DNA of 64,000 bases from Veillonellales bacterium (GTDB taxonomy: Bacteria > Bacillota > Negativicutes > JAAYSF01). The DNA is taken from the NCBI GenBank assembly GCA_039680175.1, contig JBDKTO010000117.1:47278-111277 (forward strand). Reading direction: 5' to 3'. Below are positions 1,916 through 38,755 of this stretch, in pieces (position 1 is the stretch's first letter; the number at the start of each line of letters is the position of its first letter). Both the position numbers and the translations under genes were made by a program. Below the pieces are notes generated by a model, which saw nothing but the letters and a program-made list of their open reading frames with translations, made no database searches and was not told where the DNA came from.

Positions 1916-2008
1916 AGTCGTTTTTGCTGTAGAAAAAGTATCCGTATGGTTTGCGACAACTCTCTTGACAGCTACCGAAGGGGATCATGATATAGGAGTA
2001 TTAGAATT

Positions 2009-2899: not shown

Positions 2900-2918
2900 A
2901 TATATTGGAGAAAACATA

Positions 2919-3731: not shown

Positions 3732-3761
3732 TGTATTGACGAGGGGTGGAACCAAACAGTA

Positions 3762-4628: not shown

Positions 4629-4643
4629 AAATTAGGTGCTAAT

Positions 4644-6933: not shown

Positions 6934-6966
6934 CTCAAATCATAATTAGAAAGGAATTGGCAGAAC

Positions 6967-8076: not shown

Positions 8077-8078
8077 AA

Positions 8079-9669: not shown

Positions 9670-11022
9670 TTATCGAAAAGCAGCTGGATGAGTTGAAAAA
9701 GATCGCTGCGATTGTGTTGACTCGGTAAACATAGATAGCTTTTCCACTGCATACAGCGGTAGGCTTAGCAGCCAATCTTCCTTTTTATAATCGGCCATTG
9801 ATGTGCGTATCGACAGTTTGGGCCGGAATTTTTCATAATACGTTTTTAGACTCTTTGCCTTTAAATTTGTTTCAGCCTTGACTTCGATGGGAATGACGTT
9901 ACTGCCATTATCCGCTGCAAAGTCGATTTCCGCAGTACCGCGGTTATTTGTCCAGTAATATGTGTCCAGTCCTTTGATCGTTTTTAGCTGTTGCAATACG
10001 TATTGTTCGGTAAGCGCACCTTTGAATTCCTTAAAAAGTTCGTTACCATCCAAAAGGGTGCTTTGATTAAGGCGTACCATGCAAGAAAGCAGTCCTACAT
10101 CCAACAGAAACAGCTTAAAGGCTTTCACATCTTCATAAGCCTTTAGTGGAACAGCCGGTGCAGTCACACGATGTACTTTATGCACCAGGCCGCAGTCGGT
10201 CAGCCAGAGCAGTGCCAATTCGTATTCCTTGGCTCTGGCGCCATTTCTGATCAGTCCATAGATAAATTTTTTATTCTCTTTGGCGAGCTGAGCGGGGATA
10301 CTGTTCCAGAGCATTCTAATTCTGGGTACGGTTTCATTAGGCGCGTGTTTGGAAAAGTCCTGCTCGTAAGCTGCAAGAATGCGCTGTTGTATCTCGCGTG
10401 CTTCGTTAAAATCTTTATTTTCGGAAAAATGCAGTACCGCTTCCGGCATTCCACCAACATAGTAATAATATTTGAGAATGTCTATATATGTCTGTCTGAA
10501 GGCAGTTACCATGTCAAAGTCGCCATGCTGCAGCAGCTCTGCATACTGTTCATGTCCCATTGCCATCAAAAATTCAGTGAAACTGAGCGGGTATAAATCA
10601 AGGAATTCCACTTTACCGACAGGAAAAGATGTACCGCCATGCAGTGCCACACCCAACAGGGATCCGGCGCATATGATCTGATATTCCGGGGCATTCTCAT
10701 TAAAGTATTTCAGAGAAGTCAGCGCTTGCGGCACTTCTTGTATTTCATCAAAAATCAGCAGTGTATTGGCAGGGTCAATTTTTTGGCCGGAATAAAGTTC
10801 CAGTCCGGTTACAATGCGTCCGATATCCAAGTCGGATGAAAACAGATCCTTCATCCGCCGATTGTTGTCAAAGCTGATATAAACAGTTTTAGCAAAAGCA
10901 AGTTTTCCGAACTCTTTCATTAGCCAGGTTTTTCCAACTTGTCTTGCTCCACGGATAATCAGCGGTTTTTTATTTCGTTTTGCTTTCCACTTAGTAAGCT
11001 CTTCCATTGCTGTTCTATACAT
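9670..11022 (-). CDS. AAA+ ATPase (DUF4143-type ATP-binding protein)
   Basis: Walker A GARQVGKT near the N-terminus and Walker B LLIFDEIQ. 450 aa, with the C-terminal DUF4143-like region typical of this widespread family. Confidence 0.7.
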   Translation of the reverse strand: MYRTAMEELTKWKAKRNKKPLIIRGARQVGKTWLMKEFGKLAFAKTVYISFDNNRRMKDLFSSDLDIGRIVTGLELYSGQKIDPANTLLIFDEIQEVPQALTSLKYFNENAPEYQIICAGSLLGVALHGGTSFPVGKVEFLDLYPLSFTEFLMAMGHEQYAELLQHGDFDMVTAFRQTYIDILKYYYYVGGMPEAVLHFSENKDFNEAREIQQRILAAYEQDFSKHAPNETVPRIRMLWNSIPAQLAKENKKFIYGLIRNGARAKEYELALLWLTDCGLVHKVHRVTAPAVPLKAYEDVKAFKLFLLDVGLLSCMVRLNQSTLLDGNELFKEFKGALTEQYVLQQLKTIKGLDTYYWTNNRGTAEIDFAADNGSNVIPIEVKAETNLKAKSLKTYYEKFRPKLSIRTSMADYKKEDWLLSLPLYAVEKLSMFTESTQSQRSFSTHPAAFR

Positions 11023-13229: not shown

Positions 13230-14066
13230 ATGGAATGGAATCTGAACCGAATCAACGACTATTTGTTTAAGTGGGTATTTGGCCGTGAGGAAAATAAAGA
13301 AATTTTGCTCAGCTTTCTGAACTCCGTATTGTCTCCCAGCGGGCAGGACGAATTAGCGGACATTATGCTGGCGGAACGGGAATTGGATCCGGAGCATATT
13401 GCCGATAAAATGTCGCGACTGGATATTTTAGGCAAGGGAAACGACGGCAGCATCATTAATATCGAAGTGCAAATTGCCAATCAGTATGACATAGATAAAC
13501 GGACACTGTATTACTGGGCAAAGCTGTACCAGGGACAGATGCAGAAAGGGCAGAGGTATAAAGAACTCTCCCGCACCATTACCGTTAATGTACTAAACTT
13601 TGCTTTTCTGCCGAAGGAAGAGAAGTATCATAGTATGTTTGCCCTGTATGAGACGGAGACAGGGTACCGATTAAACCGGGATTTGGAGATTCATTTTTTG
13701 GAACTGTCAAAATGGAAACAGCTGCAGGTGCCGCCGCGAACGCGGCTGGATAAGTGGCTGATGTATCTATCGAATGCCAATCCGGAGGAAATGGAGGAGA
13801 TAGCTATGAGCGAACCAGCGATTCGCAAGGCGTTAAGTGCAGAGGAAATCTTTTTAAAGCAGGATAAAGAAAGATATTTGTACGAGATGAGAGAGAAAGC
13901 CATATTGGATCATATTTCCGCCATTAGCGGTGCGGAAGAAAAAGGAAGAGCCGAAGGAAACAGGGAAACGGCAAAGCGGCTATTGGACATGGGAATGTCG
14001 GTTTCTGATATTGCCAAAGCAACGGGGTTGTCTGAGACGGAAGTCCGTCAGCTGCAGTGTCATTGA
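13230..14066 (+). CDS. Rpn-family recombination-promoting nuclease / putative transposase (PD-(D/E)XK; YhgA-like)
   Basis: 278 aa. The N-terminal region MEWNLNRINDYLFKWVFGREENKEILLSFLNSVL...LDILGKGNDGSIINIEVQ is characteristic of the Rpn/YhgA-like (TIGR01784-type) family. Good RBS (agggagg). Fragments of its C-terminus are scattered nearby. Confidence 0.7.
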   Translation: MEWNLNRINDYLFKWVFGREENKEILLSFLNSVLSPSGQDELADIMLAERELDPEHIADKMSRLDILGKGNDGSIINIEVQIANQYDIDKRTLYYWAKLYQGQMQKGQRYKELSRTITVNVLNFAFLPKEEKYHSMFALYETETGYRLNRDLEIHFLELSKWKQLQVPPRTRLDKWLMYLSNANPEEMEEIAMSEPAIRKALSAEEIFLKQDKERYLYEMREKAILDHISAISGAEEKGRAEGNRETAKRLLDMGMSVSDIAKATGLSETEVRQLQCH

Positions 14067-24949: not shown

Positions 24950-25909
24950 ATGCAAAAGCAGAAGATTCGTAAGGCGATTATTCCCGCGGCAGGGCTTGGC
25001 ACGAGGTTTCTTCCGGCGACGAAGGCTCAGCCGAAGGAAATGCTGCCGATTGTGGATAAGCCGGCCATTCAGTTTATTATTGAGGAAGCCATTCAGTCGG
25101 GAATTGAGGAGATCTTGATTATTACCGGCCGGAACAAGCGGGCGATTGAGGACCATTTCGACCGGGCCGTGGAACTGGAGCTGACTCTGAAGCAACAGGG
25201 AAAATATGATTTGCTGGGATTGGTGCAGGAGATAGCGGATGTGACCATTCACTATATCCGGCAGAAAGAAGCGAAAGGGCTGGGACATGCTGTGCTTTGC
25301 GCCAGGCAGTTCGTGGGGGATGAGCCTTTTGCCGTACTGCTGGGCGATGATATTGTGGATGCCAAGGTGCCTTGCCTGCGGCAGCTGATGGATGTGTATG
25401 AGGACTGCGGCGGCAGTGTGCTGGGAGTACAGGAGGTTCCTCAGGACAGGGTCAGCAGTTATGGAATTGTGAAGCCCAGACCGGTAAAGGAGAATCTGTG
25501 GCAGGCGGAGGATCTGGTGGAAAAACCGGCGGTGGAGGAAGCTCCTTCCCGGCTGGCGGTTCTGGGCCGCTATATTATTGAGCCGGAGATTTTTCCCCTG
25601 CTGGAAGATACGCCGCCGGGACGGGGCGGGGAGATCCAGTTGACGGACGCACTGAGGCGGCTGGCGGCGGATAGACCGGTGTATGCTTTTTGTTTTGACG
25701 GACGAAGGTATGATATTGGCGATAAGCAGGGGTATCTGGAGGCGACGGTGGAGTATGCGCTGAAGCGGCCGGAGCTCAGGGACAAGTTTTTGCGGTATTT
25801 GCTGAAGACGGTGGGTACGCTGGCCAGTCCGGAGGCGGCAGCGGCGGCGACGGAAGACGGACCGGGGACGCCACCCCCCGTCGCTTCGCGCCACCCCCAC
25901 TCTGTATAA
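24950..25909 (+). CDS. galU: UTP--glucose-1-phosphate uridylyltransferase
   Basis: KAIIPAAGLGTRFLPATKAQPKEMLPIVDKP is the canonical GalU N-terminus. The start is placed at the internal Met with RBS gaaaggtg. The ORF reads through into a downstream repeat element, so the true C-terminus may be shorter. Confidence 0.85.
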   Translation: MQKQKIRKAIIPAAGLGTRFLPATKAQPKEMLPIVDKPAIQFIIEEAIQSGIEEILIITGRNKRAIEDHFDRAVELELTLKQQGKYDLLGLVQEIADVTIHYIRQKEAKGLGHAVLCARQFVGDEPFAVLLGDDIVDAKVPCLRQLMDVYEDCGGSVLGVQEVPQDRVSSYGIVKPRPVKENLWQAEDLVEKPAVEEAPSRLAVLGRYIIEPEIFPLLEDTPPGRGGEIQLTDALRRLAADRPVYAFCFDGRRYDIGDKQGYLEATVEYALKRPELRDKFLRYLLKTVGTLASPEAAAAATEDGPGTPPPVASRHPHSV

Positions 25910-26023
25910 TTCGATTAGCGACACAGAGTATCATGAAAGAGCATCGGGGGAGGCTCCAGAGATCGCCGCGTCGCTATCGCTCCTCGCGATGACAGAATTC
26001 AGTGCTATGCACCAAGTACGACG

Positions 26024-26066
26024 TACCAAGTACCATGAGCTATGAGCTATGAGCTATGAGCTATGC
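26024..26066. repeat. Heptanucleotide tandem repeat (ATGAGCT)n
   Basis: ccatgagctatgagctatgagctatgagctatgcgccatgcgcc. Related arrays lie at ~42949-43008, ~47173-47245 and ~52579-52632. Confidence 0.7.
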
Positions 26067-26120
26067 GCCATGCGCCGAATCTCCGCGTTATCCGAGAGAC
26101 TAATCCATAGGAGGCTGACG

Positions 26121-27107
26121 ATGAATGTATTGATTACCGGGGGGGCCGGGTATATTGGGTCCCATACGGTGCGGGAGTTAATGAAGCGTGCTTCGGTTGT
26201 GGTGTATGACAATCTGTCCAAAGGCCACCGGGAGTCGGTGCCGGCGGGGGTGGACTTTGTTCAGGGAGATATCCGGGACAAGAAGCTGCTGACCGGGGTA
26301 TTGCGGCAGTACGGCATTGAGGCGGTAGTGCATTTCGCCGCCGACAGTCTGGTCGGGGAGTCGATGCGGCAGCCGTCGAAATATTACCATAACAATGTGG
26401 CGGCAACGCTGGAACTGTTGGATGCAATGACGGAATGCGGCGTGAAAAAAGTTGTGTTTTCTTCTACGGCGGCTGTTTACGGCCAGCCGGAGATTTGGCC
26501 GATTAGCGAGGAAACGGCGACGGCGCCGACGAATGTGTATGGCCGGACGAAGCTGGTGATTGAGGGGATGCTGGCCGATTTTGCCATGGCTTACGGCCTC
26601 CGCTATGTGTCTTTGCGCTATTTTAATGCTGCCGGAGCGCTGGCAGGCGGGGCGATCGGGGAAGACCACGAGCCGGAAACTCATTTGATTCCGCTGATTC
26701 TGCAGACGGCCCTGGGGCAGCGGGATGGGATCAGCGTTTTTGGCGCAGACTATGAAACACCGGACGGGACTTGCGTCCGGGACTATGTTCATGTGACGGA
26801 TCTGGCGGCGGCTCATGTGCTGGCGTTGCAGCATCTGGCAGCCGGGGGAGATTCCCGGGTATACAATCTTGGCTCGGAGACGGGATTCAGTGTCCGGCAG
26901 GTGATTGACCGGGCGAAAGCGATTACGGAAGTTGATTTTCCGGTGCGGCAGGCGGCCAGAAGGGACGGCGATCCGGCAGTGCTGGTGGCTTCGGCGGCGA
27001 AGATTCGCCGGGAATTGGGCTGGAAGCCGGTACAGAGCGATCTGTCGTCGATTCTTCGCAGTGCCTGGATTTGGCAGCAGGGACATCCGGCGGGATATAG
27101 CAGGTAA
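26121..27107 (+). CDS. galE: UDP-glucose 4-epimerase
   Basis: MNVLITGGAGYIGSHT start with a YGRTK catalytic motif. ~328 aa from the internal start. Confidence 0.85.
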   Translation: MNVLITGGAGYIGSHTVRELMKRASVVVYDNLSKGHRESVPAGVDFVQGDIRDKKLLTGVLRQYGIEAVVHFAADSLVGESMRQPSKYYHNNVAATLELLDAMTECGVKKVVFSSTAAVYGQPEIWPISEETATAPTNVYGRTKLVIEGMLADFAMAYGLRYVSLRYFNAAGALAGGAIGEDHEPETHLIPLILQTALGQRDGISVFGADYETPDGTCVRDYVHVTDLAAAHVLALQHLAAGGDSRVYNLGSETGFSVRQVIDRAKAITEVDFPVRQAARRDGDPAVLVASAAKIRRELGWKPVQSDLSSILRSAWIWQQGHPAGYSR

Positions 27108-27137
27108 GCTTCATTTGAGATAGGGAGGTCGCAGCAA

Positions 27138-28502
27138 TTGGAAAAGTTTAAGCGGAATGCGTTCAAGGCCTATGATATCCGGGGCAAGGTGCCGGGCGAG
27201 CTGAATGAGGCAATGGCTTACCGGATTGGCCGGGCTTATGTGGAGATTTTCAAGGTAAAGAAGGTGGCTGTGGGACGGGACATCCGGCTGTCCGGTCCGG
27301 TTCTGCGGGATGCTTTGGTTAACGGACTGACGGAGGCCGGCTGTGATGTGGTGGATATCGGCGTCTGCGGTACGGAAATGATCTATTTTACCACGGCTCA
27401 TTTCAAGCTGGACGGGGGCATCATGATTACCGCCAGCCACAATCCCCAGGATTATAACGGCATGAAGCTGGTGCGGGAAGGCTCCCGGCCGATCAGTGCC
27501 GACAGCGGGCTGAAGGAGATCGAGGAACGGGTGGTGACCGGGGAGTTTCCCGCCGGGGCTGCCGGGCAGCCCCGGGGGCAGGTCACAAAACGGGACATTA
27601 TGGATGAGTATATTCAGCATTTGCTGACTTATATCGATATTGACAGTCTGAAGCCTTTCAAAGTGGTGGTGAACGCCGGCAACGGCTGCGCCGGTCCGAT
27701 TTTGGATCAGCTGGAACGGTTTCTGCCTTTTAAATTCATTAAACTCAATCATGAGCCGGACGGGACGTTTCCTCATGGCGTACCCAATCCCCTGCTGGTG
27801 GAAAACCGGGATGCCACGGCGAAGGTGGTGCGGGAGCAGGGAGCGGCTGCGGGAATTGCCTGGGACGGCGATTTTGACCGCTGTTTCCTGTTTGATGAAC
27901 AGGGCGGCTTTATTGAAGGCTATTATCTGGTGGGATTTTTGGCTCAAGCCTTTTTGCGGAGAGCTCCCGGGTCTAAGATTATTCACGATCCCCGGCTGAC
28001 CTGGAATACGATTGAGGTGGTTAAGGCAGCCGGCGGCATTCCGGTGCAGTCGAAGAGCGGCCACTCTTTTATGAAAGAAACGCTGCGGCGGGTGGATGCG
28101 GTATACGGCGGCGAGGTGTCGGCCCATCACTTTTTCCGCGATTTTTCCTAGTGCGACAGCGGCATGATTCCCTGGCTGCTGGTACTGGAGATCATGAGCC
28201 AAGGCGGCAAGCCGCTGTCGGTGCTGATGCAGGAACGGATGGCCTGTTATCCGATCAGCGGGGAAATTAATAGTACGGTGGCCAATCCGCAGGCGATAGT
28301 AGAGCAGATGGAGGAGAAATTTGCCAAGGGTGCGGTTTCCGTGGAGCATATTGACGGACTGAGTGTGGAGTTTGACACCTGGCGGTTCAATGTGCGGCTG
28401 TCCAATACGGAGCCGGTGCTGCGGCTGAATGTGGAGACGAAATGCGATCCAAAATTGCTGCAGCAGAAGACGGAGGAACTATTGGCGTTTATTCGGAGGT
28501 AG
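27138..28502 (+). pseudogene. manB: Phosphomannomutase/phosphoglucomutase (ManB/CpsG-like) interrupted by a single in-frame TAG at 28149..28151
   Basis: Active-site TASHNPQDYNGMK. ..[14 protein letters not shown] is followed in the same frame by [11 protein letters not shown]. In intact PMMs this region reads [16 protein letters not shown], so the TAG replaces a conserved Tyr codon. TTG start. Confidence 0.75.
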
Positions 28503-28544
28503 AAAAGCATTTTGCGGGATTGTTTGCGGGAGGTCAGGCGCTGA

Positions 28545-30029
28545 ATGAATGATCAGGATTTGCGGCCGATTGTGGAGGTCAGTTATTTAAGCACGGACAA
28601 CACCTGGCGGTACCGGGCTATTTTGCGGTACTGCTTTCTCCAGCATGAGCGTTTGCGCCACTATGTGTATCCGGAAGAGATTTATCAGGATTTGCGGCAA
28701 AACAGTTTTTTTGCCGAATACAGCGAGGACCAGCTGCAGCAGGATTTAAAGCAGCTGGTGGAGTGGAAGAATTTGATTCCCCGGCAGGAAACGGGACGGG
28801 TTCATACGATTGAGGACTTTAAGCGAAAAAAGTTTCGCTATCAATGTACGCCCTACACGATTGAAATTGAACGGATGGTGAATAAGCTGGCCCAGCTGGG
28901 GGGCGGCTTTGGCGGCGGTTCTCTGGAGGTTACGCTGTTTGAGCGGCTGCTATCATCGCTGGTGCGGCTGCTGGAGCAGGGAATGACTCTGGAGGCGGGG
29001 GAACTGAATCAGACGTGGGAAGATTTGTACGGCTATTTTCGCGACATGGTGCAGAATGCTTCCGATTATCTGGCGCATTTGAAAAGCGACAAGGTGGAGG
29101 AGCACATGATGACGGAGGCGTTTGTCGCGTATAAGAATGCGTTTACCCAGTATTTGCAGAATTTTATTTTGAGTATGCAGCGGACTTCTTTTAAAATCGA
29201 GGGGGCGCTGAAAAAGGCTTCGCCGGAGCTGGCAGCCGGGATCGCCGGGAGGCTGGCGGATTACCAGCTGAGCATTCCCCGGATGGAGCCCCAACCCGGA
29301 CGGGAAGAGTGGCAGGAAAGCTATCAGGATAAATACCGCAGTCTGTCCGAGTGGTTTTTGGGGCGGGGAAATCATCCCAGCGAACTGATCACGCTGCAGA
29401 ATGAGACGACGGAAACAATCAGGCGGATTACCCGGTTTGCCCAGCGGGTGGGGGAGAGACGGCAGGCGTTCCGCAGCCGGCGTCATGATTATCTGCATTT
29501 GGCCGGCTGGTTTGCCGGTCTGCCGGCAGTGGGGGAATGCCATCAGCTGTCGTCGCTCTTATTCGGCATTGCCCATACCCGCCATTTTTACGGCGAACCC
29601 CGGCTCAGCGAGGATATGGACAGTTTGGTGTGGGACGAAGCGCCGACAGTGGTGACGGTGACGCCGCGGGTCGCAGGCTACCGGGAGAAGAGCCGGCCGG
29701 GGGCGGTGGTTGACCGGACGGCGGAAAAGCGGGCCGCTTTGCAGGAGTATATTGCCGGTCAGCGGCAGAAGGAAGCGTTGCTTGAGGGGTTAATCTGCAA
29801 TCAGCGGATTGTATTGGCCGATTTGCCGGAAGTGGATCCCTTTGTCCGCAAAACGCTGCTGGTGTGGATTACCCGCTGCATGCAAAATAAGGAGCGGCGG
29901 ATTCAGACTGAGACCGGGCGAAGCATCCGGCTGCTGGACGGCGTCAGGGGCAGCCGGACTGTGCTGCGCAGTACGGACGGCGAACTGGAGATGCCGAATT
30001 ATATTTTAGAATTCAGCGGTGCCCGGTAA
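28545..30029 (+). CDS. jetA: Wadjet JetA-like / MksF-like kleisin-type subunit (DUF3375 / TIGR02677-type)
   Basis: 494 aa. It is the first of four co-oriented, overlapping genes ending in a >1400-aa SMC-like ATPase and a Toprim protein. Glycine-rich linker GGGFGGGS. Size and position fit JetA. The family was not verified by search. Confidence 0.6.
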   Translation: MNDQDLRPIVEVSYLSTDNTWRYRAILRYCFLQHERLRHYVYPEEIYQDLRQNSFFAEYSEDQLQQDLKQLVEWKNLIPRQETGRVHTIEDFKRKKFRYQCTPYTIEIERMVNKLAQLGGGFGGGSLEVTLFERLLSSLVRLLEQGMTLEAGELNQTWEDLYGYFRDMVQNASDYLAHLKSDKVEEHMMTEAFVAYKNAFTQYLQNFILSMQRTSFKIEGALKKASPELAAGIAGRLADYQLSIPRMEPQPGREEWQESYQDKYRSLSEWFLGRGNHPSELITLQNETTETIRRITRFAQRVGERRQAFRSRRHDYLHLAGWFAGLPAVGECHQLSSLLFGIAHTRHFYGEPRLSEDMDSLVWDEAPTVVTVTPRVAGYREKSRPGAVVDRTAEKRAALQEYIAGQRQKEALLEGLICNQRIVLADLPEVDPFVRKTLLVWITRCMQNKERRIQTETGRSIRLLDGVRGSRTVLRSTDGELEMPNYILEFSGAR

Positions 30030-30051
30030 ACAGAAAAGTGTGGAGGATGTT

Positions 30052-31254
30052 ATGGCGCAGGACAATCTGGTTTCGCTGCAGGCTGATCCGGAAGATATCA
30101 GAGAAGCAACGACGTTACTATTGGAAAATTATTGGATTCTCCGGGAGGAACAGCCGGAGCAGTATCAGCTGATCCGCCGTTATGAACCGGCGTTAAGACG
30201 GTATTTTTTTGAAAAATGCGGCTGGCGGCTGATTCAAAATCCTCAGTTCTACAAGCTGGAAAAAATTCCGGATCAGCCCCAGGCCTGGATGGGAATTGAA
30301 AGTTTTCAGCAACCCAGGGATTATTCGCTGCTGTGCTGCCTGCTGGCTTTTTTGGAAGAAAAGGCGGTAGAGGAGCAATTTTTGCTCAGTGAGCTGTGTG
30401 AAAGCATTTTGGCTTTCTATCCTCACGAGGCGGGGGACGGCGGCAGGCTGAACTGGGAAAATTATGAGCATCGCCGGTCGCTGGTCCGGGTCCTTGCCTT
30501 TGCGGCGGAAGCCGGACTGCTGCGGCTGGTGGATGGAGACAGCGAGCAGTTTGCGATGCGCCGGGAGGGGGAAGCCTTGTATGAGGTGACTCTGTTGGCG
30601 CGTTATTTTTTACGTTCCTATCCGAAAGATTTGCAGCAGTACGACAGCATGCAATCGCTGCAGGCCGCCGAGCTTTCCGACGACGAGGCTGCTACGGGGA
30701 CGGGGCGCCGGAACCGGATTTACCGGCAGCTGCTGCTGACGGCGGCGTATAACGGCGACGACGCCCGGCCGGAAGATTTCGCCTATTTACGGAATATGCA
30801 GCGGCGGCTGCGGGAGGAACTGGAGAATACGACCGGTCTGCAGTTTGAACTGTACAAGGATTGCGCTATGCTGACAAGCCCGGAACGGACCGGCTGGGGC
30901 CGGCAGATTTTTCCGGCTTATCGCAGCGGGATTCATGCCGTGGTTTTGCATTTTGCGGCACTGTACCGCCGGCAGCGGCAGAAAAAAGAGGCGCCGGACA
31001 GTCTGAGCGCCGTGGAATTCGAGGGTTTGGCGGCGGAATGCCGCCGGGAGTATGGGTCGGGCTGGACGAAGGAATACCGGGAGCTGCCGCTGGGCAGACT
31101 GGCTGCCACTGTGCTGGCGGAGCTGGTGGAGTGGAATATGGCGGTAACCGACAGGGAAACCGGACTGATTCAATTCCGACCGGCGCTGGGACGGCTGCAG
31201 GGGCAGTATCCGACGGATTATCAGGGCAAGAGCCGGGAGGGGAAAAGCAGATGA
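30052..31254 (+). CDS. jetB: Wadjet JetB-like / MksE-like subunit (DUF4194 / TIGR02678-type)
   Basis: ~400 aa. A strong RBS (ggagg) lies 7 nt upstream of the ATG at 30052. Its stop TGA overlaps the jetC ATG (ATGA at 31251-31254). Confidence 0.55.
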   Translation: MAQDNLVSLQADPEDIREATTLLLENYWILREEQPEQYQLIRRYEPALRRYFFEKCGWRLIQNPQFYKLEKIPDQPQAWMGIESFQQPRDYSLLCCLLAFLEEKAVEEQFLLSELCESILAFYPHEAGDGGRLNWENYEHRRSLVRVLAFAAEAGLLRLVDGDSEQFAMRREGEALYEVTLLARYFLRSYPKDLQQYDSMQSLQAAELSDDEAATGTGRRNRIYRQLLLTAAYNGDDARPEDFAYLRNMQRRLREELENTTGLQFELYKDCAMLTSPERTGWGRQIFPAYRSGIHAVVLHFAALYRRQRQKKEAPDSLSAVEFEGLAAECRREYGSGWTKEYRELPLGRLAATVLAELVEWNMAVTDRETGLIQFRPALGRLQGQYPTDYQGKSREGKSR

Positions 31255-34200
31255 GGAACAAATGGCAGATGAACCGGGCCGGTGTGCTGAATTACTGGTA
31301 TTATGATGAGGAAGAATTTGATTTTGCCGATGGACGGCTGCTGCTGCGAGGCAGCAACGGATCGGGAAAATCGGTGACGATGCAAAGCTTGATTACGGTG
31401 CTGCTTGACGGGGTCAAGAGTCCGGACCGTTTGGACAGCTTTGGTTCCCGTTCCCGGCGGATGGAGGATTATCTGCTGGGGGAAAAGGAAATCGTCAACC
31501 GGGATGAGCGTACCGGCTATCTGTATCTGGAGTACAAGCGGCAGCAGACGGATCAATATGTGACCACCGGTATCGGTCTTCACGCCCGGCGCGGCGGCAC
31601 CGTTGATTTTTGGGGCTTTGTCATTACCGACAACCGGCGTATCGGCCGGGATTTCTGGCTGTATAAGCGGGAGATGAATCCGGAAGACGGCTCCCCCCAG
31701 CGCATCCCTTTTACCCGGGCCGAGCTGGAACGGGCCGTCGGCTCCGGCGGACAGGTGGTGCGGTCGCAGAAGGACTATATGGAACTGGTGAACCGGCATG
31801 TATTCGGGTTCGAGAATTTGGAGCAGTATCAGGAACTGATGAAGCTTCTCATTCAGCTGCGCAGTCCGAAATTGTCTAAGGATTTTAAGCCCAGTGTTAT
31901 TTATGAAATTTTAAATGAATCGCTGCCGTCTTTGTCGGATGAAGAATTGCGTCCGTTGTCGGATACGATTGAAAGCATGGAGCGGATCAAGCTTCAGATC
32001 GAGCAAATGGAACGGGATCGCCAGGCTTTGAACCGGTTGTGCCGCCAGTATGACGGATATAACGAGTATGTGCTGGCGGAAAAGGCGGACTTGGCGCAAA
32101 AAGCCGAACGGCGGCACAGCCGGCTGGAACGGGAGGGCAAAGAACTGGCGGAAGGACTAGCGGAAGCAGCCGGACTGCTGACGGAACAGCGGCGGAGTCA
32201 GGCGGAGCTGGAACGGGAGCTGGCAGTTCTGGAAGTGGAAAAGGCGGAACTGGAGAAGCATGATGTATTTCAGGTGGAGCAGCAAAAGCAGGCCAAGGAA
32301 CAGCAGCTGATCCAGCTGGAGGGTGAGCAGAAAAACCGGGAAGAGAAATTGGCGGAGCGGCAAAAGGGAGAGCGGGAAGAACGGCAGCTGGTTTTGGAAT
32401 ATGAAGGACAGCGGGAAACCTTCCGGCAGGGAATGGAAGAACAGCTGGAAGACATGGCTGCTTTGGCGGCGGAAGCTGATTTCAGCGATCATGAGTTGTT
32501 GGCGCGGGATTTTGCCGTTCAGCCGGCAAAGGTTTCTTTCGGGGGATGGCGGCAAAATTCCCAATCCCATGTAGCAAGGCTGGAAGCGGGGCTGCAGGTG
32601 CTGCGTCGGCAGCGGGAAGCCCGGCTGCGCCGCGACCGGATTGAACAGGAACTGGGGGAGGAACGGCGACTGCTCGACGAATACCGGGGCGAACATCGTA
32701 AGCTGGAGCAGCGGTTTCTGGAGGTCCGGGAGCAGCTGTTGGCCGATGTGTACAGCTGGCAGCAGCGTTATGACGCTGATTTGCCGCTGGAGAAGGAAGA
32801 ACTGCGGCAGATTGCCCAGGGCATTCAGGGATTGTATGAAGGACGGCTGTGGAGCGATGTGCAGGCGCCGCTGGATACAGCTTACGGGCGGCAGGTCGAC
32901 CGGCTGAACCAGGAACTGGGTTTAAACGGAGCCCGGCTGCGCCAGCTGGAGGAACAGGAACAGGGTCTGCAGCAGGAACTGCAATCCTGGCGGGATCAGC
33001 GGGATCCGGAGCCGGAGCGGCTGCCGGATGTGGAGGCGACCCGCCGGCTGCTGACGGAAAAACAGGTCCCTTTCGTGCCTTTTTATGCGGCTGTCGAATT
33101 TGATTCCAGGGTGACGCCGGCCATGCGGGAGCGTCTGGAAGCGGCACTGACCGATATGGGGCTGCTGGATGCTTTGATTGTTCCGGCCGGCCGGCTGCCG
33201 GAACTTTCCGGACTGGAGGCTTACGGTTCGGTGTTTTATCCGGATCCCCAGATTATGACTGCCACGCTGGCGGATTATCTGCAGCCGACTCCGCCGGTAG
33301 ACGGGAAGGTGTCGGCGGCGGATATTGATGAGGTTCTGCGGAGCATTTTGATTGACGACTGCCGGCCGGGGACAGGGCCGGCGGCGAATGGCAGCAGCCA
33401 GCCGGTGCTTTCGGCTGACAGCGGCGATTACCGGTTGAACCTCGTCAGCGGTCGGGCGTCCCGCCGCCAGTCGGCGGTCTATATCGGCAGGCAGGCCCGT
33501 CAGGAATACCGGCGCCGGCAGATGGCTGAGCTGGAGGAAAAGCTACGGGAAACGGCGCTGGCTGTGGAAGAGGTTCATGGGAAAATGCAGCTGCTGCGAA
33601 GCCGTCAGGAGAAAAATCGCCAGGCCAGGGAAGACTTTCCGGCAGAAACGGAAATCCGGGAGATTTTTCATAACAAGCAGGCGGTGACCGCGAATATTGT
33701 CCGGCAGGAACAGCGGGTCAATGTAGTGGACGGGCGGCTGCGGGAAGTTACCGGTGAAGTGCTGTCTTTGCGGCAGGAGTGGCAGAAGGTCAGCGACGGG
33801 CTGAAGCTGCCGGCGGATGAATCCGGTTATGAAGGCGCGGTGTCGGTGATGCGGCAGTATCAGCAGAGTCTCCATGAGCTGGAATTGAGCCGGCAGGGAT
33901 TTTTGAACAGCAGCGATAATGCCCGGCAATGCGGCCGACGGCTGGCGGATTTGTCCGCCGAGGTGGACGGATTGAAAGGCGAACTGCTGGTGCAGGAAGG
34001 CCGGCTGCAGACGATCCGGCTGGAAATTGACCGGCTGGAAAGCCGGATGCGGGAGATGGGAGCGGAAGAACTGCGGGAGCGTGTTCGGTTTGTGGCCAAA
34101 CGGCTGAAGGAAATACCGGCAGCGGTCAAAGAACTGATTGCCGCTGCTGCCAAACTGGAAGGCGATATTCGCCTCCAGGAAAGCCGCAAGCTGGAAGTGG

Positions 34201-35480
34201 CGGCTAAGACTCAGTTTGTCGGACAGCTGATTGTCTGCTGGCAGCAGCTGCTGAAGCAGGAATTGCAGCTGGGTTTGGTTTATCCGCCGGACGAGACGAC
34301 TGACAGCGGCGGGATCCTTCGCGACAAGGGCGGCTGGCTGAAGCCTGACAAACCGGACCGCATCAGCCTGACGGATCGGATCAGCAAAAGCTTTGCGGTG
34401 GAAAATAATGTGCTGATGGAATACCGGATGCAGCTGGAGCCGCTGACTGTTGAAATTAAGGCTGTACCGGTTTTGCCGGAAAATAGGGAGGAAGACGACG
34501 GACTGGCCGCCGATCTGGAAAAGCTGCGGGAGAAATCGCATCGTCTGGTGATTACTCTGGATTACGACGGACGGCGGCAGAATCCTTATCAACTGCAGCA
34601 GGTTTTGAACCGGCAAATTGAGGAGCAAAAGGCGATTTTGTCCGATAAGGACAAGGAATTGTATGAAGAAGTGATTATGAACAGTATCGGCCGGATTATC
34701 AGCCGCCGCATCCGTTCGGCTCAGCAATGGGTAGAGAAAATGAACAAACTGATGCAGCAGCGGGACAATTCCAGCGGATTGAAGTTTAAACTGGAGTGGA
34801 AAGCGCGGACCGCGGACCGGGATGAGGAACTGGATACGCAGGATTTGGTGCGGCTGCTGCATGCCGATCCGGCGGTTCTAAAGGAAGAGGATTTAGCGAA
34901 AATGGTGAGCCACTTTCAGTCCCGCATCCAGCAGGCCAAGCAGGCCAGCGAAGGAGCAGCCGGGGAAGCCGAGGCCACTTTTCAGCAGGCCGTCCGGCAG
35001 CTGCTGGATTATCGCCTCTGGTTCCAATTTAAGCTGCAGTATACCCAGGTAAATTTGAACTGGCGGGAACTGAGCGATAAGGTATTTTTCAAGTTCAGCG
35101 GCGGTGAAAAAGCCATGGCCATGTATATTCCCCTATTTTCAGCCGCTTATTCCCGTTATCAGGAGGCCGGTCCGGACGCGCCGTATATTATTACTTTGGA
35201 TGAAGCCTTTGCCGGGGTGGATGAAAACAATATCCGGGATACTTTTGCCTTAGTGGAGCAGTTAGGGTTTAATTATATTATGAATTCCCAGGCGTTGTGG
35301 GGAGATTATGATGTGGTGCCGTCTTTGGCGGTTTGCGAGCTGATTCGCCCCCAGAATGCGCCTTATGTTACGGTGGTGCGGTATCACTGGAACGGGTCGG
35401 TGCGGACACTGCAGGCAGCCGGCGAGGCGGAACAGGCTGCTTCTTCGGTGGTGGCCGCCGCCCGGCAGGGGGAACAATGA
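31251..35480 (+). CDS. jetC: Wadjet JetC-like / MksB-like SMC-family ATPase
   Basis: 1409 aa from the ATG at 31251. The ORF-track start at 30861 lies inside jetB and is rejected. Walker A GSNGSGKS (aa 34-41). Two long E/Q/R/L-rich coiled-coil arms. C-terminal ABC signature FSGGEKAMAMYIPLF and Walker B YIITLDEAFAGVDE. Confidence 0.8.
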   Translation: MRNKWQMNRAGVLNYWYYDEEEFDFADGRLLLRGSNGSGKSVTMQSLITVLLDGVKSPDRLDSFGSRSRRMEDYLLGEKEIVNRDERTGYLYLEYKRQQTDQYVTTGIGLHARRGGTVDFWGFVITDNRRIGRDFWLYKREMNPEDGSPQRIPFTRAELERAVGSGGQVVRSQKDYMELVNRHVFGFENLEQYQELMKLLIQLRSPKLSKDFKPSVIYEILNESLPSLSDEELRPLSDTIESMERIKLQIEQMERDRQALNRLCRQYDGYNEYVLAEKADLAQKAERRHSRLEREGKELAEGLAEAAGLLTEQRRSQAELERELAVLEVEKAELEKHDVFQVEQQKQAKEQQLIQLEGEQKNREEKLAERQKGEREERQLVLEYEGQRETFRQGMEEQLEDMAALAAEADFSDHELLARDFAVQPAKVSFGGWRQNSQSHVARLEAGLQVLRRQREARLRRDRIEQELGEERRLLDEYRGEHRKLEQRFLEVREQLLADVYSWQQRYDADLPLEKEELRQIAQGIQGLYEGRLWSDVQAPLDTAYGRQVDRLNQELGLNGARLRQLEEQEQGLQQELQSWRDQRDPEPERLPDVEATRRLLTEKQVPFVPFYAAVEFDSRVTPAMRERLEAALTDMGLLDALIVPAGRLPELSGLEAYGSVFYPDPQIMTATLADYLQPTPPVDGKVSAADIDEVLRSILIDDCRPGTGPAANGSSQPVLSADSGDYRLNLVSGRASRRQSAVYIGRQARQEYRRRQMAELEEKLRETALAVEEVHGKMQLLRSRQEKNRQAREDFPAETEIREIFHNKQAVTANIVRQEQRVNVVDGRLREVTGEVLSLRQEWQKVSDGLKLPADESGYEGAVSVMRQYQQSLHELELSRQGFLNSSDNARQCGRRLADLSAEVDGLKGELLVQEGRLQTIRLEIDRLESRMREMGAEELRERVRFVAKRLKEIPAAVKELIAAAAKLEGDIRLQESRKLEVAAKTQFVGQLIVCWQQLLKQELQLGLVYPPDETTDSGGILRDKGGWLKPDKPDRISLTDRISKSFAVENNVLMEYRMQLEPLTVEIKAVPVLPENREEDDGLAADLEKLREKSHRLVITLDYDGRRQNPYQLQQVLNRQIEEQKAILSDKDKELYEEVIMNSIGRIISRRIRSAQQWVEKMNKLMQQRDNSSGLKFKLEWKARTADRDEELDTQDLVRLLHADPAVLKEEDLAKMVSHFQSRIQQAKQASEGAAGEAEATFQQAVRQLLDYRLWFQFKLQYTQVNLNWRELSDKVFFKFSGGEKAMAMYIPLFSAAYSRYQEAGPDAPYIITLDEAFAGVDENNIRDTFALVEQLGFNYIMNSQALWGDYDVVPSLAVCELIRPQNAPYVTVVRYHWNGSVRTLQAAGEAEQAASSVVAAARQGEQ

Positions 35481-36853
35481 GCGGAAAGAAGCCGCAGGAC
35501 CTACTGCTGGCCGAGGCGGCGGACTACTTTCATTCCCATTCCGGCCTGGAGCGCCTCCTGGCCGGAATGACGGAAAAGTACCGTACGCTGGGCCGGCTGG
35601 CGGGAGTCGTGGTATTGACCGGAGTCAGCAGGGAAGAAAAGACAGCTTTGGAGTCTTTTTTTCGCCGGGTGCTGCCGGCAGGCAGTCTGCGGATTTCCGC
35701 CGAAAAGTTTAAAACCGCCTTGGCGGAAACCCGGTTCGGCGGTTTGGACCCCTTGGCGGTACTGGCGGCCTGGCAGGGAGAACCCCTTGTCAGCCGCCGG
35801 GAGAAGCAGGAGCAGGCAGAGAGCCGGCGGCGCCGGGCGTTGACAGCATTGTTGGCTAAGTTTTCTCAGCCTTTTTGCCAGGCTTGGCTGAAAGGGGCGC
35901 TGGACCGGGAAGAAGGTACAAGACGGGTGCAGACGGCCTTTCGCCGCGATCCCCGTCGGTTTATGGAGAATATGTCAGTGGCGCTGCGGGCTATGGCCGG
36001 GTTGCCGGAAGAATATCGGCGGCTGCCGGTATTTTCCCGGGAAATATGCGGCAATCCCCACGGCCTGGATATTGACGGTGAGGCCGGGAAACTGCTGTTG
36101 GAAGGACTGGCATATATCCGCCGGTCAAGGCAGGAAGAGTGCGACAGCTCCTTTTGCACCGGCGACGGCGGCGAATCGCCGGAGAGACTGTCGGCTATTG
36201 AAGTAATTACGGAACTGTTGTATCATTTTCGGCTGCTGAGGGATGATTTGCTGAATTTTGTGACTTGCATCGGTTTGGCCGCTGATGACCGGCGGGGAGA
36301 GATCGTCTACTGGCGCCGGGCGGTTCAGGCCGGTGCGCCGCTGAATCTGCCCCTGCGGGAGGTAGTGCGGGCGGTAAAAATTTATCCGGCGGCAGCCGGG
36401 CGAGAGAACGATGCTGGTTATGAGGTGCTGGTGGTGGAAAATTCCGGAGTATTTTCGGCCCTGCTGGATGAAAAAGGCGGGGACGGCAGCTGGGGGGGAA
36501 AACCGCTGGTTTGTCTCCACGGTCAGCCGAAGCTGGCTTCCTGGGCTCTGCTGGATCGTCTTGCCGGCAGCGGTGCGCTGCTGCGCTATGCCGGCGATTT
36601 TGATCCGGAAGGGCTGCAGATTGCCCAGAAATTACTGCGGCGGTATGCCGGCCGGGCCGGTCTTTGGCGCATGACGGCGGCGGATTACCGGGAGGCCGGT
36701 CCGTCTGAACCCATCGGCCGGGGCCGGCTGAACAAATTACGGTCTGTTGTCCTGCCGGAACTGGCGCCGCTGTGTCAGCTGATGGAGCAGACGGGCCTGG
36801 CGGCTTATCAGGAGGGATTGCTGGCAAAGCTGGCCGCGGATATAGAACTTTAA
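35477..36853 (+). CDS. jetD: Wadjet JetD-like / MksG-like protein with a C-terminal Toprim-like domain (DUF3323+DUF2220-type)
   Basis: 458 aa. ATGA overlap with the jetC stop. The C-terminal region has Toprim-like acidic motifs (LVVENSGVF ... AGDFDPEGLQIA). Confidence 0.65.
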   Translation: MSGKKPQDLLLAEAADYFHSHSGLERLLAGMTEKYRTLGRLAGVVVLTGVSREEKTALESFFRRVLPAGSLRISAEKFKTALAETRFGGLDPLAVLAAWQGEPLVSRREKQEQAESRRRRALTALLAKFSQPFCQAWLKGALDREEGTRRVQTAFRRDPRRFMENMSVALRAMAGLPEEYRRLPVFSREICGNPHGLDIDGEAGKLLLEGLAYIRRSRQEECDSSFCTGDGGESPERLSAIEVITELLYHFRLLRDDLLNFVTCIGLAADDRRGEIVYWRRAVQAGAPLNLPLREVVRAVKIYPAAAGRENDAGYEVLVVENSGVFSALLDEKGGDGSWGGKPLVCLHGQPKLASWALLDRLAGSGALLRYAGDFDPEGLQIAQKLLRRYAGRAGLWRMTAADYREAGPSEPIGRGRLNKLRSVVLPELAPLCQLMEQTGLAAYQEGLLAKLAADIEL

Positions 36854-36859
36854 AAATAG

Positions 36860-38386
36860 GTGCAGATGGGAGCGACTGACATGACAAAACAGAGTAATTT
36901 CCTTAAACTGGAGTCTGGTTTTTGTTTTGACTATACCAACCTGTTTGGCGAGCAAAAAGTGACGGCCGGGGATGTTAACGAGCTGGCCGGCCGGCTGGAA
37001 CAGGCTCATCAGGCAGTCTGCCGGATGCGGGATACAGGTGAGGTCAGGGGGCATCGGTCGAAAGACGGTACGGCGGAAAAAGTGCTGTTTACTCAGTTGC
37101 CTTATATTGCCGACGGACAGTTGAATTCCCCGGCTTCCCTGGAACGGCTGAAGAATTTCGGTCGCTCCCTGCGCTGCCGGGCGGATGCGGTGGTGTCTTT
37201 TGGTATCGGCGGGTCCTATTTGGGCAATAAGGTTTTATTTGATGTTCACTGCGGTGAGTTTTGGAACAGTAAGACGGCTGAGGAACGGGACGGCTATCCT
37301 AAGCTGTATTTCAGCGGCAATAATATTGATCCTCGGCGGACGGGGGATTTGGTGGAGCAATTGGTGCGGGAAGCGAAGAGAAAGGACAACACACCCCACC
37401 CGGCAGGTACCCCTCTTGCTAGAGTGGATTGTAAACAGCCTTATAAGGTTACTTTGATTGTGATTTCCAAATCCGGGTCGACATTGGATACGATGTCGAA
37501 TTTTCTGGTGGTGTATGATGCGCTGCAAAAGCAGGCGCCGCTGATTGAAGTCGAGGTTGCGGCGGTGACGGATCCGGCGGCGGGGGAAAAGGCGACGCTG
37601 CTAAAAAAATTGGCTGGCGAGCAGGGATGGCGGACTTTCAGCGTGCCGGACGGCGTCGGCGGGCGGTTCAGTATATTTTCCGAAGTGGGGCTGATTACGG
37701 CGGCTTGCATCGGCTTTGACATGGACGGCTTTTTGGCCGGAGCCCGGAATATGGATGAAGTCTGTCAGACCGGGGATGTGTGGCGCAATCCGGCGATGCT
37801 GAATGCGGCGCTGAAATATCTGGCAGCGGCCAAGTACGGGCGGAATATTGAGGTATTTATGCCTTATGGTGATTATCTGAAGTCAGTGGCTGAGTGGTAT
37901 GTCCAGCTGCTGGCGGAATCTCTGGGAAAGCGAACCGATCGTGAGGGCAGGGACGTGTTTTACGGCCGGACGCCGATTGTGGCGGTCGGGACAACGGATA
38001 TGCATGCTCAGACCCAGCAGCATCAGGACGGCAAGCGAGATAAAGTGGTGCAGTTTGTCAGGGTGGCACAGTGGGAAAAAGACCCGGTGATTCCCAATTT
38101 GTATCCCCGGGTGGAGAAACTGGCCGATATGGCGGGAATTACTCTGGGTCAGGCACTGGAAGTCGCCCGGGAAGCCAACGCCGGGGCGCTGGCGGGCGAC
38201 GGACGGTTTAACGCCGTGTTTACACTGCCGCAGCTTACGGCTTATCATCTGGGAGAATTGCTGTATCTGCTGGCACTGTCGGTGGCTTACGAAGGGGAAC
38301 TTGCCAATGTGGATGCTTTCGACCAACCGGGAGTGGAGGCCTATAAGCGGCTGATGGGGCCAAGACTGAGAGCGCTAAAGAGTTAA
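36860..38386 (+). CDS. pgi: Glucose-6-phosphate isomerase
   Basis: PGI signatures GIGGSYLG, ISKSGSTLDT and DGVGGRFSIFSEVG. ~500 aa. Starts 7-28 nt after the jetD stop. Confidence 0.8.
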   Translation: MQMGATDMTKQSNFLKLESGFCFDYTNLFGEQKVTAGDVNELAGRLEQAHQAVCRMRDTGEVRGHRSKDGTAEKVLFTQLPYIADGQLNSPASLERLKNFGRSLRCRADAVVSFGIGGSYLGNKVLFDVHCGEFWNSKTAEERDGYPKLYFSGNNIDPRRTGDLVEQLVREAKRKDNTPHPAGTPLARVDCKQPYKVTLIVISKSGSTLDTMSNFLVVYDALQKQAPLIEVEVAAVTDPAAGEKATLLKKLAGEQGWRTFSVPDGVGGRFSIFSEVGLITAACIGFDMDGFLAGARNMDEVCQTGDVWRNPAMLNAALKYLAAAKYGRNIEVFMPYGDYLKSVAEWYVQLLAESLGKRTDREGRDVFYGRTPIVAVGTTDMHAQTQQHQDGKRDKVVQFVRVAQWEKDPVIPNLYPRVEKLADMAGITLGQALEVAREANAGALAGDGRFNAVFTLPQLTAYHLGELLYLLALSVAYEGELANVDAFDQPGVEAYKRLMGPRLRALKS

Positions 38387-38407
38387 GACGAAAAGGCGGA
38401 CAAGGAG

Positions 38408-38562
38408 ACACACCCCGCCCTGCGGACGATTTGCCTGTTCTGTATAATTCGGCTAACGAAACCAAAAGATGGTTTCGAGTCTTATCTATTTTTCTAATGG
38501 GGAATAGGCGGTCTTAAAATCCCCTCTAAAAAGAGGGGTGGCGCGTTAGCGACGGGGTGTGT
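38408..38562 (+). repeat. MITE-like composite dispersed repeat, full-length copy with ACACACCCCGCC...GGCGGGGTGTGT termini
   Basis: Contains internal hairpins (cgaaaccaaaagatggtttcg; cccctctaaaaagagggg). Same family as 14245-14345. Confidence 0.6.
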
Positions 38563-38755
38563 ACAGCGTGAGTTCTGCGATTTTTTCTACATTCCGAGCA
38601 TAATAATTCGCTTTGCATAACTCGACTTAGCGGGAGCATATAAAATATAAATTTGAGTGTACCAAAAAAATCCTGTCAGCCAGTGACAGGATTTTTACAT
38701 AAGATGTAGAAAAAGTTACTCTACGGTAGAAATAAATGACAATGGAGTTATTGTT

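Follow-up and report, generated by a model that had tools for sequence, protein, structure and literature searches.

The closest known relative of the locus reported here is the type II Wadjet system (JET-II) of Neobacillus vireti. Its JetA1B1C2 motor units are dimerised through JetA, and small circular DNA is sensed by ATP-driven loop extrusion (bioRxiv 10.1101/2025.03.10.642339). The JetD subunit cleaves at random positions, leaves short 5' overhangs and spares linear DNA, and plasmid cleavage and restriction by the system have been shown in vitro, where Mn2+ is required, and in Bacillus subtilis (bioRxiv 10.1101/2025.03.10.642339). Type II is distinguished by a larger structural maintenance of chromosomes (SMC) protein and by one ~390-residue JetB with tandem kleisin-interacting winged-helix (KITE) modules in place of a KITE dimer; JetD and JetABC are not exchangeable between type I and type II (bioRxiv 10.1101/2025.03.10.642339). 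In the native hosts, loss of EptABCD in Mycobacterium smegmatis (Panas et al. 2014) and of JetABCD in Clostridium cellulovorans (PMC12287153) raises plasmid uptake by orders of magnitude. Here we analyzed a stretch of 64,000 nt from a Veillonellales (Negativicutes) chromosome (GenBank assembly GCA_039680175.1, contig JBDKTO010000117.1, positions 47,278 to 111,277 of the forward strand), which is referred to as the window. It very probably carries a complete type II Wadjet system (JetABCD / JET-II), for which a plasmid-restriction mechanism is proposed by homology.

The open reading frame (ORF) list of the window contains four co-oriented, translationally coupled genes on the plus strand at 28545-36853. 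The individual genes are as follows.

28545-30029, + strand: jetA, 494 amino acids, kleisin subunit of type II Wadjet, TAA stop at 30027-30029
30052-31254, + strand: jetB, 400 amino acids from an ATG start, predicted tandem-KITE subunit; an alternative GTG at 30019 would give 411 amino acids
31251-35480, + strand: jetC, 1409 amino acids from an ATG start, SMC/MukB-like ATPase
35477-36853, + strand: jetD, 458 amino acids from an ATG start, CAP-like N-terminal half and C-terminal Toprim nuclease

ATGA stop/start overlaps join jetB to jetC (31251-31254) and jetC to jetD (35477-35480). With jetB starting at 30052 the gap to jetA is 22 nt, and a GGAGG lies 5 nt ahead of this ATG. The ORF coordinates and junction sequences agree with an initial annotation of the window, made from the letters alone, which had listed four ORFs of ~494, ~400, 1409 and 458 amino acids, their overlaps and a ggagg ribosome-binding site for the 30052 start. 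We prefer this start, and thus the predicted 400-residue JetB, over GTG 30019, because an independent gene prediction for a Logan contig of identical sequence begins there and because residue 18 (in 400-residue numbering) aligns to residue 15 of the solved 389-residue JetB.

To assign the four proteins, profile libraries from Pfam, PADLOC and NCBIfam (curated cut-offs) were used and the assignments compared across all three. All four proteins belong to type II Wadjet families, with intact catalytic motifs. The matches of each subunit were:

JetA: Pfam DUF2397 (PF09660), E 3e-141; PADLOC JetA2, E 1e-186; TIGR02677, 400 bits against a cut-off of 166
JetB: Pfam DUF2398 (PF09661), E 8e-100; PADLOC JetB2, E 9e-134; TIGR02678, 292 bits against a cut-off of 125
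JetC: Pfam AAA_29 and SbcC_Walker_B at opposite ends; PADLOC JetC2, 1579 bits; TIGR02680, 963 bits against a cut-off of 463
JetD: DUF3323 (PF11796), E 1e-43; DUF2399 (PF09664), E 6e-35; JetD2, E 4e-127; TIGR02679, 237 bits against a cut-off of 196

The overall E range given for these family assignments runs from 1e-70 down to 0, far beyond chance. Further support is provided by essentially full-length matches of JetA, JetB and JetC to the solved N. vireti type II complex (PDB 9QE0/9QE1). JetA matches chain 9qe0_E 'JetA' over residues 3-490 (E 4e-120), JetB matches chain 9qe0_D 'JetB' over residues 18-397 of 400 (E 2e-84), and JetC matches chain 9qe0_A 'JetC' over residues 3-1389 (E 3e-289). 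From the full-length homology to 9qe0_D we infer a tandem-KITE fold with four winged-helix domains for JetB.

Type I Wadjet was considered and rejected in favour of type II. In Pfam, DUF3375 and DUF2220 gave no match, and DUF4194 reached 16.3 bits against a cut-off of 32.7. The PADLOC models JetB1, JetC1 and JetD1 matched marginally (E 5e-5 to 4e-20), whereas their type II counterparts reached 1e-127 to 0; the type III models likewise gave marginal matches only. The Wadjet/JetABCD architecture that the initial annotation had read from gene order and size is thus borne out in all three libraries, its suggested TIGR02677-02680 set is above cut-off throughout, and JetA2, JetB2, JetC2 and JetD2 are all matched in PADLOC. 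From its list of Pfam families DUF3323 was found; DUF3375 and DUF2220 were not, and DUF4194 stayed below cut-off. The length of JetB and of the SMC protein, which had seemed odd, follows from the enlarged SMC and tandem KITE of type II. Its attribution of the long JetB to an actinobacterial variant has to be dropped, as it finds no support in Pfam, NCBIfam or PADLOC or among the protein and PDB matches: the relatives that have a name belong to the Negativicutes, Desulfitobacteriia and Bacillales, and the solved JetB homologue comes from Neobacillus.

The catalytic motifs of JetC and JetD were all located as first described.

31350-31373, + strand: JetC Walker A at residues 34-41, reading GSNGSGKS where the solved N. 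vireti JetC has GTNGSGKS
35094-35222, + strand: JetC signature FSGGEKA (residues 1282-1288), Walker B YIITLDEAF (1312-1320) and D-loop AGVD (1321-1324)
36431-36613, + strand: JetD Toprim acidic residues, E321 in VVENSG (319-324) and D374/D376 in GDFDPEG (373-379)

The C-terminal JetC motifs fall within the Pfam SbcC_Walker_B match at residues 1250-1336 (E 2e-20). An alignment of 32 homologues (35-61% identity) shows no variation at JetD residues E321, D374, D376 and E378. The reading frames of jetA-D are open over all 2,761 codons. A search of the JetD sequence against PDB yielded no relevant relative; the sole match was a spurious potassium-channel fragment (E 0.32). The protein was therefore compared by structure. 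An AlphaFold2 model of JetD (pLDDT 90.9, pTM 0.77) was searched with Foldseek, and the best matches, all with probability 1.00, were topoisomerase VI-A structures (1d3y, 9o7o, 9o0g). The Corynebacterium glutamicum MksG nuclease (8b7f) and Pseudomonas aeruginosa JetD (7til) were also found with probability 1.00, in line with the Toprim-like domain initially proposed for the last protein.

By analogy to the characterised complex, a motor unit would be built from the JetA kleisin, one tandem-KITE JetB and a pair of JetC SMC ATPases, and two such units would dimerise via JetA. The complex would load on DNA and extrude loops with ATP. Only full extrusion of a small circular DNA would activate the JetD Toprim nuclease, which would cut irrespective of sequence. 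The net outcome would be restriction of plasmids, with the chromosome spared. A plasmid-uptake phenotype as in M. smegmatis and C. cellulovorans would be expected for this locus.

The chromosomal position of the cassette was resolved by comparison with related genomes. The features that define the site are:

27138-28502, + strand: manB (phosphomannomutase/phosphoglucomutase), with PGM_PMM domains I-III at 27138-28148 and domain IV at 28164-28499
28494-28502, + strand: left junction motif CGGAGGTAG, which closes manB (TAG stop included), 7 of 9 positions matching the right motif
28503-36845: inserted segment, 8,343 nt relative to the empty manB-pgi site, comprising a 42-nt leader and jetABCD
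36837-36845, + strand: right junction motif CGGATATAG, JetD codons Ala-Asp-Ile; the sequence that follows aligns with the ancestral spacer
36881-38386, + strand: pgi (glucose-6-phosphate isomerase), Pfam PGI; the start ATG aligns with the start in the relative L009

In the related genomes L009 and L010, the genes galU-galE-manB-pgi-orf191-secretin-response regulator are found in the order of the window, without jet genes and with manB and pgi 35 nt apart. Nucleotide identity to the window is 84-89% across the region (~86% overall), and Pgi is 88% identical at the amino acid level. The genes galE, manB and pgi are syntenic orthologues in L009 with 85-88% nucleotide identity. Indeed, the L009 alignment covers 26107-28497 of the window and then continues directly at 36837-38361. 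The jet genes are also missing upstream of pgi in three further outgroups (L011/L012, L013 and Thermosinus L014). The jetD-pgi junction is common to L008, a strain from the sister sample SRR15035646 with 97.6% DNA identity. With an empty site in L009 and jet-free outgroups, jetABCD is therefore a lineage-specific insertion right after the manB stop. The alignments show an 8.34-kb insertion in a former 35-nt manB-pgi spacer of a galU-galE-manB-pgi operon.

The empty site of L009 contains a single CGGAAATAG where the filled site has both CGGAGGTAG and CGGATATAG. Past the right motif lies ancestral spacer, which includes the pgi ribosome-binding site, leads to ATG 36881 and also supplies jetD with its final two codons and its stop. 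Nothing essential of JetD was apparently lost in this way, because the C-terminal tails of JetD homologues naturally vary in length. The 9-nt imperfect direct repeat (CGGAnnTAG) suggests that the cassette was captured by microhomology-mediated recombination, not through the action of an integrase or transposase. The insert at 28503-36845 holds only the leader and the four jet genes; neither an integrase or transposase gene nor a tRNA was found in it, and the whole window has no tRNA gene. The distance from manB to jetA measured 42 nt, the value given before. From jetD to the nearest pgi start, GTG 36860, it is 6 nt and not 7; the start backed by the orthologue is ATG 36881, 27 nt past the jetD stop.

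Repeats resembling miniature inverted-repeat transposable elements (MITEs) lie on both sides of the region. An explicit pattern search confirmed copies in the same orientation at ~25876-26050 and ~38408-38562. They belong to a dispersed family of seven copies between 14 and 50 kb of the window, with terminal inverted repeats (CACACCCCGTCGCTWCGCGCCACCCC / GGGGTGGCGCGWAGCGACGGGGTGTG) and the core CTGTATAATTCGACTAACGAAACCGAAAGGCGCGGTTTCGAGTCTCATCTATCTTTCTAGAGGGGA.

14278, 25902, 38440, 41557 (- strand), 47899 (- strand), 50255 and 50337: core positions of the MITE-like repeats, all intergenic, ~110-170 nt each

The stretches 25810-26106 and 38362-38646, each with one repeat copy, are missing from L009, where the galU-galE and pgi-orf191 spacers measure 63 and 21 nt, compared to 297 and 285 nt in the window. 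Since L009 lacks both copies and has shorter spacers, the repeats are independent small insertions. A 46-nt piece of the repeat recurs in L011 at 96% identity, against only ~72% for the genes of that genome. The repeat matched no Rfam family. A generic repeat search of 24-41 kb returned chance-level short matches inside coding sequence and did not reveal the flanking family. The galU-galE spacer just before galE also contains two adjacent 7-nt microsatellites at 26011-26065 (ACCAAGT x3.6 and ATGAGCT x4.4), within the stretch missing from L009. They add several in-frame ATGs and extend the mechanically called galE ORF to 352 amino acids versus 328 in L009.

The nearest relatives of the cassette were collected. 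A protein identical to JetD is deposited at NCBI as 'MAG: TIGR02679 family protein [Veillonellales bacterium]' (P0001; MAG, metagenome-assembled genome), and window positions 28412-36935 recur at 100% identity on a Logan contig from SRR15035647. Identity drops to 60% for the next-nearest JetD. For JetA, the nearest sequence (76% identity) comes from a Negativicutes MAG, L001, the only relative returned by a genome-contig search with JetA. Its contig of 7 kb includes 180 nt upstream of jetA, with a terminator-like hairpin and without manB. Homologues occur across Negativicutes (Sporomusa, Selenomonas, Pectinatus, Methylomusa), Desulfitobacteriia and Bacillales. In the closest relatives (L001, L003/4, L006, L007) the four-gene order is kept, with 492-503 (A), 398-406 (B), 1404-1409 (C) and 455-464 (D) amino acids. 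Their flanks are unrelated and include a PhdYeFM/ParE toxin-antitoxin pair, an SNF2 helicase with SWIM and a MatE transporter. Order and sizes kept amid unrelated flanks argue that the four genes form a mobile unit.

Some of these flanks were inspected. The PhdYeFM antitoxin/ParE-like toxin pair lies directly after jetABCD in L003/L004 (9091-9720) and L005 (2202-2787), with a JetD of 59% identity, and in L006 a pair of SNF2 helicase and SWIM protein follows jetABCD. The cassettes of these relatives thus adjoin defence-like or addiction modules, unlike the one in the window. ORFs of 94 amino acids upstream of jetA in L003 and L006 were considered as a conserved accessory gene; they are mutually unrelated, have no meaningful Pfam match and were set aside as coincidence.

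Selection on the jet genes was estimated as dN/dS (the ratio of non-synonymous to synonymous substitution rates) from protein-guided codon alignments, with the following values.

Window versus L008 (97.6% DNA identity): jetD 0.25 (21 synonymous, 15 non-synonymous substitutions); pgi 0.09
Window versus L001 (76% relative): jetA 0.12; jetB 0.17

These codon comparisons show the jet genes to be under purifying selection. The jetD value of 0.25 still means constraint, though it is based on just 36 substitutions.

How the cassette is expressed was addressed at its junctions. The 42-nt leader upstream of jetA includes a GGGAGG ribosome-binding site, and folding of the manB-jetA leader RNA gave no significant structure (z = -1.5). 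A consensus scan of both junctions detected no promoter-like or terminator-like site. Therefore, read-through from the host operon is the most economical reading: the cassette is probably transcribed from upstream, and pgi is now probably transcribed through the cassette. Co-transcription with the sugar genes, as first suggested, is a plausible reading. The gene directly upstream carries a nonsense codon. In manB, an in-frame TAG at 28149-28151 (translation ...FFRDFS*CDSGMIPW) replaces a TAC (Tyr) present in L009 and L011 and splits the protein into a 337-residue fragment with domains I-III and a 112-residue fragment with domain IV. Otherwise manB is without decay (dN/dS 0.10 versus L009). Three origins are conceivable for the TAG: a nonsense mutation of very recent date, a polymorphism among strains or a mistake in the assembly. 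If real, the TAG would break the supply of GDP-mannose (manC lies upstream). Recoding of TAG was rejected, given that manB itself ends in TAG, that no tRNA is found in the window and that the codon differs from TAC by a single C-to-G change.

Other explanations of the locus have to be weighed. A chromosome-organising condensin of the MksBEF/MukBEF kind, without a role in defence, would fit an SMC/MukB-like JetC, a JetB with weak sub-threshold matches to MksE and DUF4194, and a core-chromosome site beside housekeeping genes with no defence island. Coupled to jetC, however, is a fourth gene for a Toprim protein with invariant E/DxD residues and the topoisomerase VI-A/MksG/JetD fold. All four proteins fall into the JetA2-D2 and not the Mks/Muk models of PADLOC, and the cassette is missing from four related lineages, hence accessory. 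Moreover, the homologous N. vireti complex cleaves plasmids (bioRxiv 10.1101/2025.03.10.642339). Taken together, this makes a condensin very unlikely. An SMC-like repair or abortive-infection system of the SbcCD/Rad50-Mre11 or Lamassu type is less credible still. The best JetC Pfam domain bears the name SbcC_Walker_B and AAA_29 also matches, but both are generic head-domain models, whereas the whole-length equivalog TIGR02680 scores 963 bits on JetC. The neighbouring genes include no phosphoesterase (SbcD/Mre11) and no Lamassu effector, but a kleisin, a KITE and a Toprim protein. The partner of the ATPase, for which the initial annotation had weighed a phosphoesterase as the alternative, is a Toprim/topoisomerase VI-A-like protein.

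Other doubts concern the state and origin of the cassette rather than its family. A genuine Wadjet cassette could be silent or decaying, i.e. promoterless behind a nonsense-mutated manB, poorly expressed or being lost. The lack of a promoter-like site at the left junction, the premature TAG 350 nt upstream and the higher dN/dS of jetD compared to pgi between two close strains all point in this direction. We consider it unlikely, because the reading frames and catalytic motifs are intact, the translational coupling signals are kept, the junction persists in a strain diverged by 2.4%, and the dN/dS of jetD still indicates constraint. The undecayed remainder of manB argues for a recent TAG or an assembly or strain artefact. 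Acquisition or rearrangement of the whole galE-manB-jetABCD-pgi block as a module bounded by MITE-like repeats had been proposed initially, from the same-orientation copies at 25876-~26050 and 38408-38562. The repeats exist, but with seven copies over 14-50 kb they do not bound a block. L009 keeps the galU-galE-manB-pgi-orf191-secretin order at 84-89% identity without both repeats and jet, and the GC content at third codon positions is the same in jet and flanking genes (0.66-0.69). Since galE, manB and pgi match L009 at the same identity as the surrounding region, module acquisition is unsupported and highly improbable; by their sequence, these three genes are vertically inherited.

Several points weigh against a functional type II Wadjet system inserted between manB and pgi. 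The plasmid restriction proposed for this locus is deduced entirely from homologues. Compared to type I JetD/MksG, the JetD model fits well in the Toprim part and is globally loose (template modelling score 0.28-0.41), and we know of no solved structure of a type II JetD. With just 7/9 matching positions, the microhomology at the junctions could be due to chance (roughly estimated at ~1e-2, positional slack allowed). A precise deletion in the L009 lineage could account for the empty site; with three further cassette-free outgroups this is unparsimonious. Expression is uncertain, as the consensus scan is crude and could miss Negativicutes promoters inside manB. If real, the manB nonsense codon ~350 nt upstream could exert transcriptional polarity on the jet genes and pgi.

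The inserted type II Wadjet cassette lies between two different groups of genes. Upstream is a polysaccharide region related to the cell envelope, with low-GC glycosyltransferases, rmlA, rmlC, rmlD, rmlB, manC, wzi, galU, galE and manB. Downstream follow pgi, a 193-residue ORF, a secretin, a LuxR-type response regulator and, later, flagellar genes. Pgi is 70-76% identical to Negativicutes enzymes (Thermosinus, Sporolituus, Pelosinus, Sporomusa). At 2000-9200, about seven plus-strand ORFs have 28-35% GC versus ~55% in their neighbours; the only one scanned, 4644-5894, encodes a GT4/GT1 glycosyltransferase. The block probably represents an O-antigen- or capsule-specific portion of the polysaccharide locus that has been exchanged horizontally. 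Two genes between the low-GC glycosyltransferases and the rml genes may mark the edge of the exchanged segment: an AAA_14/DUF4143 ATPase on the opposite strand (9670-11022, - strand) and a PD-(D/E)XK 'PDDEXK_2' transposase-like protein of the Rpn type (13230-14066, + strand). In the flgN-flgK-flgL cluster, 59913-62345 encodes an unusually long flagellin of 810 residues, with Flagellin_N and Flagellin_C ends and a centre of ~580 residues. GC skew on the plus strand is strong and uniformly positive (about +0.15 to +0.3) up to ~53 kb, and nearly all genes lie on this strand, consistent with a leading-strand segment. No Rfam family reached the gathering threshold within the window.

The conceptual gain from one more type II Wadjet locus is small, as both the biochemistry and the structure of this established type have been described and this JetD already carries the label TIGR02679 at NCBI. 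The sole unusual aspect, and a mildly unusual one, is the insertion into an operon spacer without hallmarks of a mobile element. The pair of empty and filled sites in ~86%-identical genomes resolves a spacer insertion to the nucleotide and bears on how such cassettes move. In a more far-reaching and rather doubtful scenario, a promoterless Wadjet-II, captured by ~9-nt microhomology, would depend on and be co-regulated with the galE-manB-[jetABCD]-pgi operon, and the manB TAG could be a consequence or modulator of this arrangement by way of polarity on jet and pgi. Plasmid defence would then be transcriptionally linked to the supply of surface-polysaccharide precursors, and expression of pgi would depend entirely on transcription across 8.3 kb of defence genes. 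It would also be a concrete case of defence cassettes spreading without mobile-element machinery and being wired into housekeeping operons. For plasmid transformation or conjugation into this Veillonellales lineage, a Wadjet barrier is to be expected, as shown for C. cellulovorans.

Among known systems, the locus most resembles nvJET-II of N. vireti LMG 21834 (Roisne-Hamelin, Liu & Gruber). The two share the four genes, their order, the Pfam/TIGRFAM families, an enlarged SMC (1409 residues here versus 1371) and an enlarged single JetB (400 versus 389). They differ in host, here a diderm Firmicute (order Veillonellales), and in their diverged sequences. The JetC described here has 38 additional residues, among them a short segment near residues 705-725, and its placement within a sugar-nucleotide operon is peculiar to this lineage. 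Type I Wadjet/MksBEFG systems (Escherichia coli GF4-3, P. aeruginosa PA14, C. glutamicum) likewise combine a kleisin, a KITE, an SMC and a Toprim nuclease, and the JetD model shares its topoisomerase VI-A-like CAP and Toprim fold with PaJetD (7til) and MksG (8b7f). Their protein families are different (DUF3375, DUF4194, DUF3584 and DUF2220-DUF3322): DUF3375 and DUF2220 are unmatched here and DUF4194 and JetB1/C1/D1 are marginal. Type I is also set apart by a ~240-residue dimerising KITE, a smaller SMC and a doughnut-shaped hinge (bioRxiv 10.1101/2025.03.10.642339). The operons of M. smegmatis (EptABCD) and C. cellulovorans (JetABCD) are, like this one, chromosomal four-gene Wadjet operons and are cited for their in vivo phenotype only. 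With MukBEF/MksBEF the locus shares the SMC-kleisin-KITE architecture, and the resting geometry and channel-less hinge of type II resemble MukBEF (bioRxiv 10.1101/2025.03.10.642339). Those condensins organise the chromosome and have no nuclease subunit, whereas the genes described here are coupled to a JetD with intact Toprim residues.

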